DNA of 60,642 bases from a virus (IMGVR_UViG_2721755676_000007), one strand, 5' to 3'. Positions 42,690 to 44,138 are shown, counted from the first letter of the stretch. Made by a program: numbers and translations. Notes: a model not told the origin generated them from the sequence alone.

Positions 42690-42717
42690 TGGCAGTCCCT
42701 ATAGTAAAACCATAGCT

Positions 42718-44046
42718 CTGATGAATCCCCTAATGATTTTGGTAAAAATCATTAAGTTAAGGTGGATACACATCTTGTCATATGATCAAATGGTTTCGCC
42801 AAAAATCAATAATCAGACAACAAGATGTGCGAACTCGATATTTTACACGACTCTCTTTACCAATTCTGCCCCGAATTACACTTAAAACGACTCAACAGCT
42901 TAACGTTGGCTTGCCACGCATTACTTGACTGTAAAACTCTCACTCTTACCGAACTTGGCCGTAACCTGCCAACCAAAGCGAGAACAAAACATAACATCAA
43001 ACGAATCGACCGATTGTTAGGTAATCGTCACCTCCACAAAGAGCGACTCGCTGTATACCGTTGGCATGCTAGCTTTATCTGTTCGGGCAATACGATGCCC
43101 ATTGTACTTGTTGACTGGTCTGATATTCGTGAGCAAAAACGACTTATGGTATTGCGAGCTTCAGTCGCACTACACGGTCGTTCTGTTACTCTTTATGAGA
43201 AAGCGTTCCCGCTTTCAGAGCAATGTTCAAAGAAAGCTCATGACCAATTTCTAGCCGACCTTGCGAGCATTCTACCGAGTAACACCACACCGCTCATTGT
43301 CAGTGATGCTGGCTTTAAAGTGCCATGGTATAAATCCGTTGAGAAGCTGGGTTGGTACTGGTTAAGTCGAGTAAGAGGAAAAGTACAATATGCAGACCTA
43401 GGAGCGGAAAACTGGAAACCTATCAGCAACTTACATGATATGTCATCTAGTCACTCAAAGACTTTAGGCTATAAGAGGCTGACTAAAAGCAATCCAATCT
43501 CATGCCAAATTCTATTGTATAAATCTCGCTCTAAAGGCCGAAAAAATCAGCGCTCGACACGGACTCATTGTCACCACCCGTCACCTAAAATCTACTCAGC
43601 GTCGGCAAAGGAGCCATGGGTTCTAGCAACTAACTTACCTGTTGAAATTCGAACACCCAAACAACTTGTTAATATCTATTCGAAGCGAATGCAGATTGAA
43701 GAAACCTTCCGAGACTTGAAAAGTCCTGCCTACGGACTAGGCCTACGCCATAGCCGAACGAGCAGCTCAGAGCGTTTTGATATCATGCTGCTAATCGCCC
43801 TGATGCTTCAACTAACATGTTGGCTTGCGGGCGTTCATGCTCAGAAACAAGGTTGGGACAAGCACTTCCAGGCTAACACAGTCAGAAATCGAAACGTACT
43901 CTCAACAGTTCGCTTAGGCATGGAAGTTTTGCGGCATTCTGGCTACACAATAACAAGGGAAGACTTACTCGTGGCTGCAACCCTACTAGCTCAAAATTTA
44001 TTCACACATGGTTACGCTTTGGGGAAATTATGAGGGGATCTCTCAG
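42718..44046 (+). mobile_element. IS10 (IS4 family), complete 1329 bp, flanked by 9-bp target duplication ACCATAGCT
   Basis: Outside end CTGATGAATCCCCTAATGATTTT at 42718; inside end ...GGGGATCTCTCAG at 44046; ACCATAGCT at 42709-42717 and 44047-44055. Confidence 0.92.
42825..44033 (+). CDS. IS10 transposase
   Basis: 402-aa ORF MCELDILHDSLYQFCPELHLKRLNSLTLACHALLD..., IS10/Tn10 transposase. Confidence 0.93.
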   Translation: MCELDILHDSLYQFCPELHLKRLNSLTLACHALLDCKTLTLTELGRNLPTKARTKHNIKRIDRLLGNRHLHKERLAVYRWHASFICSGNTMPIVLVDWSDIREQKRLMVLRASVALHGRSVTLYEKAFPLSEQCSKKAHDQFLADLASILPSNTTPLIVSDAGFKVPWYKSVEKLGWYWLSRVRGKVQYADLGAENWKPISNLHDMSSSHSKTLGYKRLTKSNPISCQILLYKSRSKGRKNQRSTRTHCHHPSPKIYSASAKEPWVLATNLPVEIRTPKQLVNIYSKRMQIEETFRDLKSPAYGLGLRHSRTSSSERFDIMLLIALMLQLTCWLAGVHAQKQGWDKHFQANTVRNRNVLSTVRLGMEVLRHSGYTITREDLLVAATLLAQNLFTHGYALGKL

Positions 44047-44138
44047 ACCATAGCTCAGGACGCTTCGTTCAGGATAGATACTTTTATTGTACTTACCTAA
44101 CTTTCTTACTATAGCACGGTTGAAAAAGTGATTATTAC

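Follow-up and report, generated by a model that had tools for sequence, protein, structure and literature searches.

The 60,642-nucleotide viral stretch IMGVR_UViG_2721755676_000007, referred to at its full length as the window, carries at 42718-44046 a complete copy of the insertion sequence (IS) IS10, which lies in a lambda-like prophage with DLP12-type genes and turns its outward promoter, pOUT, toward a row of prophage genes that includes rusA and Q. We put the probability at roughly 85% that this is a routine, recent and strain-specific cut-and-paste insertion of an intact element, most likely neutral baggage in a decaying prophage and not a selected regulatory change. The event is of an already known kind: the element is a common wild IS10-Right variant, and activation of neighbouring genes by pOUT and activation of rusA by insertion sequences are both well described. 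The original prediction for this locus had read the element as a transcriptional driver of the nin–rusA–Q genes, and that interpretation is partly supported, its orientation and its precedent being right.

The element, its parts and the duplicated target are as follows.

42718-44046, plus strand: IS10 (IS10-Right type); outside end 42718, inside end 44046
42718-42740, plus strand: outside-end terminal inverted repeat CTGATGAATCCCCTAATGATTTT, agreeing with the inside-end repeat at 17 of 23 positions
44024-44046, minus strand: inside-end terminal inverted repeat, holding a Dam site GATC at 44037-44040
42825-44033, plus strand: transposase gene, 402 amino acids (aa) (Pfam DDE_Tnp_1; NCBIfam IS4 family transpos_IS4_2)
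42784-42787: Dam site GATC at bp 67-70 of IS10; it overlaps the -10 region of pIN, from which the transposase gene is transcribed (PMC5006887)
42747-42759, plus strand: IS10 bp 30-42, AATCATTAAGTTA, resembling the IHF-site consensus
42709-42717: left copy of the 9-bp target-site duplication ACCATAGCT, which is a single copy in empty-site relatives
44047-44055: right copy of the 9-bp target-site duplication ACCATAGCT, abutting the IS10 inside end

The 1329-bp sequence starts at its 5' side with CTGATGAATCCCC and finishes at its 3' end with GGGGATCTCTCAG. It is bounded by the imperfect terminal inverted repeats of about 23 bp that characterize IS10, a member of the IS4 family (outside end CTGATGAATCCCC..., inside end CTGAGAGATCCCC...), and when the IS10 end pattern was searched across the 60.6-kb window these two repeats were the only matches, the number predicted from shuffled sequences being 0. 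The transposase scored 404 bits against transpos_IS4_2 (cut-off 152). A 10-bp perfect palindrome at 42731-42754 overlaps the stretch resembling the IHF consensus, which would be the outside-end IHF site of the element. GATC occurs at two sites only within the element, bp 67 in the -10 region of pIN and bp 1320 in the inside end; the role of the IS10 Dam sites has been described (PMC5006887).

Gapless full-length alignment with IS10-Right of the R100 Tn10 (NC_002134) revealed identity at 1327 of 1329 bases, as compared with 15 base differences from IS10-Left of the same transposon. One of the two substitutions, G to C at bp 83 (window 42800), is the base found in IS10-Left, and the other, C to A at bp 203 (window 42920), is synonymous; the 402-aa transposase has zero amino-acid differences from the R100 IS10-Right copy. 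The window copy thus shares with R100 IS10-Right its length, transposase, terminal repeats, two Dam sites, RNA-OUT and pOUT, and 9-bp duplication, and differs in being solo with its own duplication and in the bases at bp 83 and bp 203. With exact ends, full alignment to R100 and a complete transposase, the element is intact, as had been claimed for it, and, its transposase and ends being the same as in active IS10-Right, it would be expected to be able to transpose.

The original prediction gave the coordinates, the length and the duplication of the element correctly. It ascribed the 9-bp duplication to direct transposition, and comparison with relatives bears this out. Agreement of a 9-mer at one fixed pair of positions has a chance probability of about 4e-6. 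When the IS and both flanks were searched by megablast in 5426 complete E. coli genomes, the flanks were found joined as a 2063-bp stretch, i.e., the query minus 1329+9 bp, in many genomes, five of which carry this empty site at 100.0% flank identity. In WP8-S17-ESBL-05, the two flank alignments overlap by the 9-mer and one chance base. WP8-S17-ESBL-05 and AW1.7 both combine identical flanks with the empty site. The same search returned IS10 at this position in 0 of the 5426 genomes; among 10 listed contigs encoding the identical 107-aa protein of the adjacent prophage gene, all 10 have ybcK 111 bp upstream and no IS; and the 39-mer spanning the left junction gave 0 matches in the species-representative genome collection. 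Since no occupied site turned up in these collections and the flanks are 100% identical to those of several empty-site strains, the insertion appears recent and strain-specific. With IS10 missing from the site in every other genome and contig examined, nothing indicates selection.

The target itself, A-CCA-T-AGC-T, was compared with the IS10 consensus NGCTNAGCN (GCTNAGC): its right half-site is perfect and its left half-site agrees at 1 of 3 positions, giving 4/6 in total. Non-optimal target sites are used by IS10 in practice, and 4/6 is usual for a non-hotspot (PMC2744996). A solo element with its own duplication must have moved as IS10 and not as part of Tn10. One arm of a Tn10 was considered as an alternative identity and rejected, as the window holds a single pair of ends, with its own duplication.

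The exact variant is widespread in wild isolates, where NCBI annotation names IS10 copies the ISVsa5 family. The 1329-bp sequence is 100% identical in the chromosomes of E. coli PCN061, STK78-E, R2, APEC_AN-25 and 23CRST032, and a solo copy 100% identical over 1329 bp resides in the Klebsiella IncHI1 plasmid pAB4-4-tetX4; its transposase, like that of R100 IS10-Right, is WP_001339197.1. The identical wild E. coli copies come from pork, chicken, coriander and humans. More broadly, a largely complete IS10 is present in 1174 of the 5426 complete E. coli genomes, and IS10 occurs in more than 3000 plasmid records. Compared with these solo wild copies, the window element is identical in sequence and differs solely in its insertion site, none of the identical wild copies lying between ybcK and the 107-aa gene. 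Tet genes are absent from the window. As this IS10 copy differs at two bases from IS10-Right of R100 and is identical to wild copies, its origin in a laboratory Tn10 appears unlikely; a history in Tn10, which had been suggested for the element, need not be invoked for a variant found solo in wild isolates.

The position and direction of pOUT rest on the antisense RNA that it produces.

42763-42832, minus strand: RNA-OUT antisense RNA (Rfam RF00240, full-length model match), running toward the outside end
42840-42845, minus strand: TAAAAT hexamer, the likely pOUT -10, so assigned because it precedes the RNA-OUT 5' end by 7 nt

The match to RF00240, read from 42832 to 42763, scored 99.5 bits (gathering score 41, E 2e-20), and the long RNA-OUT hairpin was reproduced by folding. 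The RNA-OUT 5' end coincides with the pOUT start at IS10 bp 115 (42832), as described for IS10, and the RNA overlaps the start of the transposase gene. The C at bp 83 falls within the RNA-OUT loop and at position +3 of RNA-IN, where antisense pairing starts; it agrees with the Rfam consensus and with wild E. coli copies. No good -35 hexamer was found for pOUT and a simple promoter scan did not list it, so the promoter's position and direction were taken from the covariance-model match. As RNA-OUT lies on the minus strand, pOUT is directed out through the outside end, toward lower coordinates, and it shares its coding strand with the 107-aa open reading frame (ORF), ybcN, ninE, ybcO, rusA, ylcG and Q. 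The strand of RNA-OUT and the gene order together confirm the proposed orientation of pOUT toward the 107-aa ORF, ybcN, ninE, ybcO, rusA and Q. On the sense strand, 143 nt separate the pOUT start from the downstream ATG of the 107-aa ORF; the distance from the IS end is 2.4 kb to the start of rusA and 3.0 kb to that of Q.

Sequence features that might stop such transcription were sought along the same path. No canonical terminator follows RNA-OUT: the RNA-OUT hairpin and the next, AT-rich hairpin both lack a U-run. Two scans for intrinsic terminators on the minus strand from 42832 to 39343 returned only weak hairpins, no more than in shuffled sequences; these hairpins between pOUT and Q were considered as a block to transcription and rejected, their number being at chance level. 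On the other side of the element, a second outward promoter, OUTIIp, has been reported at the IS10 inside end. A GC-rich terminator-like hairpin with a T-run lies on the plus strand at 44183-44197, 137 bp beyond that end and within the 3' end of the oppositely oriented ybcK. Transcripts emerging from the inside end could be halted by this hairpin, or the hairpin may be a chance occurrence.

That pOUT can activate genes outside the element was recognized in 1982-83, according to papers citing Simons et al. 1983. Read-out from pOUT into neighbouring genes is documented as a minority fraction of its transcripts (PMC2744996, PMC9330008) and has been put at about 10% of the lacUV reference promoter (PMC9330008), and activation of acrEF by pOUT is cited in the same source (PMC9330008). 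Much the same geometry is seen at otsBA in rpoS-null E. coli, where IS10 inserted at +12/+13 of the transcript, with translation starting at +56, and pOUT reads into the operon (Stoebel et al. 2009, PMC2744996). Both insertions place the outside end a few tens of bp before a start codon and occupy a non-optimal target; unlike the window insertion, which is single and unselected, the otsBA insertions arose repeatedly under selection and their expression was measured.

For rusA, insertion of an IS upstream is a described route of switching on, as the original prediction noted (PMC1636454, PMC10956419, PMC4118853), and expression of the gene requires IS2 or IS10 inserted upstream (PMC1636454, PMC4118853). 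In DLP12 of K-12, the alleles rus-1 (IS2) and rus-2 (IS10) consist, as here, of an IS upstream of rusA in a nin-type block; the IS provides a promoter for genes that would otherwise not be expressed in the lysogen (PMC1636454, PMC10956419, PMC4118853, PMC2265524). The window likewise has an outward promoter upstream of rusA on the rusA coding strand (pOUT at 42832, minus; rusA from 40311 to 39949, minus). The K-12 alleles came from selections for suppressors of ruv mutations, and raised RusA activity was shown for them, whereas the window insertion was not selected, stands 2.4 kb and five genes from rusA, and belongs to another prophage, beside ybhC.

The genes on either side of the insertion, from upstream to downstream in the direction of prophage transcription, are listed below.

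upstream of IS2: repressor/cro-like genes and O, P and ren remnants, the early rightward region
46256-47586, minus strand: IS2, 1331 bp, with a 5-bp duplication CTTTC at 46251-46255 and 47587-47591
45910-46242, minus strand: emrE
between emrE and ybcK, minus strand: ylcJ-like small ORF
44139-45665, minus strand: ybcK, a 508-aa large serine recombinase, upstream of IS10 and now cut off from the nin block
42366-42689, minus strand: 107-aa ORF, the first gene downstream of pOUT, with a P22-type antirepressor C-terminal domain only
41409-42191, minus strand: 260-aa ORF, function unassigned (PHROG 6544, unknown function)
between the 260-aa ORF and ybcN, minus strand: 33-aa ORF
39343-41216, minus strand: nin-type block, from Pfam and the annotation of the near-identical relative L001 (offset 32699)
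40761-41216, minus strand: ybcN, Orf-like (Pfam NinB 21.0 bits, below the cut-off of 23.8)
40591-40761, minus strand: ninE (L001 annotation)
40308-40598, minus strand: ybcO (Pfam YbcO)
39949-40311, minus strand: rusA, a back-up Holliday-junction resolvase (Pfam RusA)
39812-39952, minus strand: ylcG (L001 annotation)
39343-39726, minus strand: Q antiterminator (Pfam Phage_antitermQ)
beyond Q: porin gene on the opposite strand, then essD and rrrD

IS10 sits in the 111 bp that separate ybcK from the 107-aa gene, with its transposase gene opposing the prophage genes. The first IS10 base lies 29 bp from the ATG of the 107-aa ORF (42689, minus strand), so that 28 bp intervene. The 29 bp agree with the distance that had been given for the outside end, and the GGGA ribosome-binding site of the ORF is undamaged by the insertion. 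The encoded protein matches Pfam P22_AR_C over residues 15-85 (E 6e-14), and PHROG 7640, with weaker matches to Ant families. The gene is conserved, free-standing, in many E. coli prophages, and the identical protein occurs in 714 blocks of the collection. The next gene, the 260-aa ORF, had been called HNH-like: a single borderline PHROG match to an HNH family over residues 10-71 (E 6e-4) speaks for this label, and Pfam and NCBIfam, neither of which gave a match, do not.

The order emrE, ybcK, ybcN, ninE, ybcO, rusA, ylcG, quuD, porin, essD and rrrD, established from the annotation of relatives and Pfam, is of DLP12 type. In place of the ybcL, ybcM and ylcH genes of K-12 DLP12, the window prophage has the 107-aa and 260-aa genes. 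DLP12 integrates at the argU tRNA gene; in the window, the right arm of the prophage ends instead at a tyrosine integrase beside ybhC, in the neighbourhood of the lambda attachment site. The prophage also retains a full replication and recombination arm (repressor, O, P, bet, exo and gam). The ybhC neighbour and the retained bet, exo and gam mark it as a fuller relative of DLP12 at another chromosomal site. The link to DLP12 drawn in the original prediction therefore holds for gene content and fails for identity.

This prophage is already damaged by IS2 and by an island in its portal gene. The emrE start codon (46242) follows only 13 bp after the right end of IS2. IS2 is absent from the closest relative, WP8-S17-ESBL-05, and in CFSAN029787 it stands in the same orientation about 125 bp upstream of emrE; the differing positions in the window prophage and CFSAN029787 point to independent insertions. 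In other relatives, the emrE–ybcK stretch holds copies of IS1 or of the IS3 family. The lambda-family portal gene is split into two parts, 30520-31401 (profile positions 2-242) and 18901-19674 (profile positions 238-354), by an island of about 10.8 kb (~19675-30520) that includes the following genes.

29130-30371: integrase
24551-26305: D5-type primase
22273-23400: major capsid protein
20783-21337: Nu1-like small terminase

The island looks like a capsid-forming phage satellite, similar to a phage-inducible chromosomal island, inside the portal gene of its helper prophage. The same island-in-portal arrangement was observed in CFSAN029787.

Considering this background, we propose that IS10 landed in the rightward early/nin region of a lambda-like prophage with DLP12-type genes, and that the 1.3-kb insert, its transposase gene antisense to the operon, would uncouple the genes from the 107-aa ORF through Q from upstream transcription by polarity. 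In place of that transcription, pOUT would supply weak constitutive sigma-70 read-out: most of its transcripts would end as RNA-OUT at nt 47, a minority would cross the outside end, and the read-out would probably cover the first gene or two. By analogy with known IS10 behaviour, low constitutive transcription of the 107-aa ORF is likely, and read-out might extend to rusA (2.4 kb) or Q (3.0 kb). If Q were strongly expressed, the lysis genes should come on, and such expression should hence be counter-selected.

Several points weigh against this account. The main pOUT product is the 69-nt RNA-OUT, which ends at nt 47, inside IS10 (PMC5006887), and an RNA-OUT ending within the element is the outcome that the original prediction had itself named as speaking against outward transcription. 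The 143-nt untranslated leader is one place where Rho-dependent termination could end the read-out, and the 174-bp and 94-bp gaps downstream are others. The 4/6 target is compatible with chance insertion, but selection is being judged here from a single genome.

Polar inactivation as the main effect of the insertion is the likeliest of the alternatives, although as the principal explanation it seems rather doubtful. According to this view, IS10 together with IS2 blocks early rightward transcription to Q, the late and lysis genes are not switched on when the prophage is induced, and pOUT is irrelevant. The replication genes and Q share a strand and do have the insert between them, its transposase gene being antisense, and the further signs of prophage decay fit such a block. 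IS10 insertions are also polar on downstream genes. The literature reports that IS10 knocks out genes it interrupts, and the annotation of the closest relatives lists no N-type antiterminator gene. Antiterminated lambda-type transcription classically reads through IS polarity, which counts against a block of this kind. Moreover, polarity is compatible with read-out and already forms part of the explanation that we prefer, and with the portal gene already broken, the loss of Q adds little.

A second alternative assigns the insertion a benefit: it would be an activating allele kept by selection, a natural counterpart of rus-2, and pOUT-driven rusA, ybcN or the 107-aa fragment would serve the host. 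The orientation of IS10 is the activating one, no clear intrinsic terminator intervenes between pOUT and rusA, and IS2 or IS10 upstream of rusA is the classical route to its expression; the otsBA case shows that IS10 in such geometry can be selectable (PMC2744996). We nevertheless regard this reading as improbable. The insertion occurs once, with no parallel in the genomes and contigs examined, rusA is 2.4 kb and five genes past the outside end, and rus alleles help only ruv mutants. Read-out that reached Q should trigger the lysis genes, which is costly, and a co-directional orientation is one of two possible and arises readily by chance. Apart from selection, the insertion might act as a natural rus-2-like switch, with constitutive pOUT read-out expressing the 107-aa fragment, YbcN, RusA and a little Q in the uninduced lysogen; we consider such a switch to have a slim chance of being real. 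Were it to operate, it would alter recombination or repair, or cause leaky late and lysis transcription, and it might affect mobilisation of the capsid-encoding satellite in the portal gene of the same prophage.

A laboratory or assembly artefact, i.e., an IS10 hop during passage or cloning in an IS10-carrying K-12 host or a misplaced repeat copy, is hardly credible: IS10 is active in ex-Tn10 laboratory strains and can expand or jump into cloned DNA, yet the perfect 9-bp duplication and exact ends indicate real transposition and not misassembly, and bp 83 and bp 203 differ from R100 IS10-Right, the classical laboratory source of IS10, and are identical to wild copies.

As a routine, recent insertion that is most likely neutral, the locus illustrates the pile-up of insertion sequences in resident lambda-like prophages and has little significance beyond correct annotation. 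In the one strain that it marks, induction might not be needed for rusA, ybcN and Q to be expressed. Should read-out be shown to extend to rusA, the insertion would represent a wild-strain case of a mechanism so far derived from laboratory suppressor hunts, a modest addition that would introduce no new principle.

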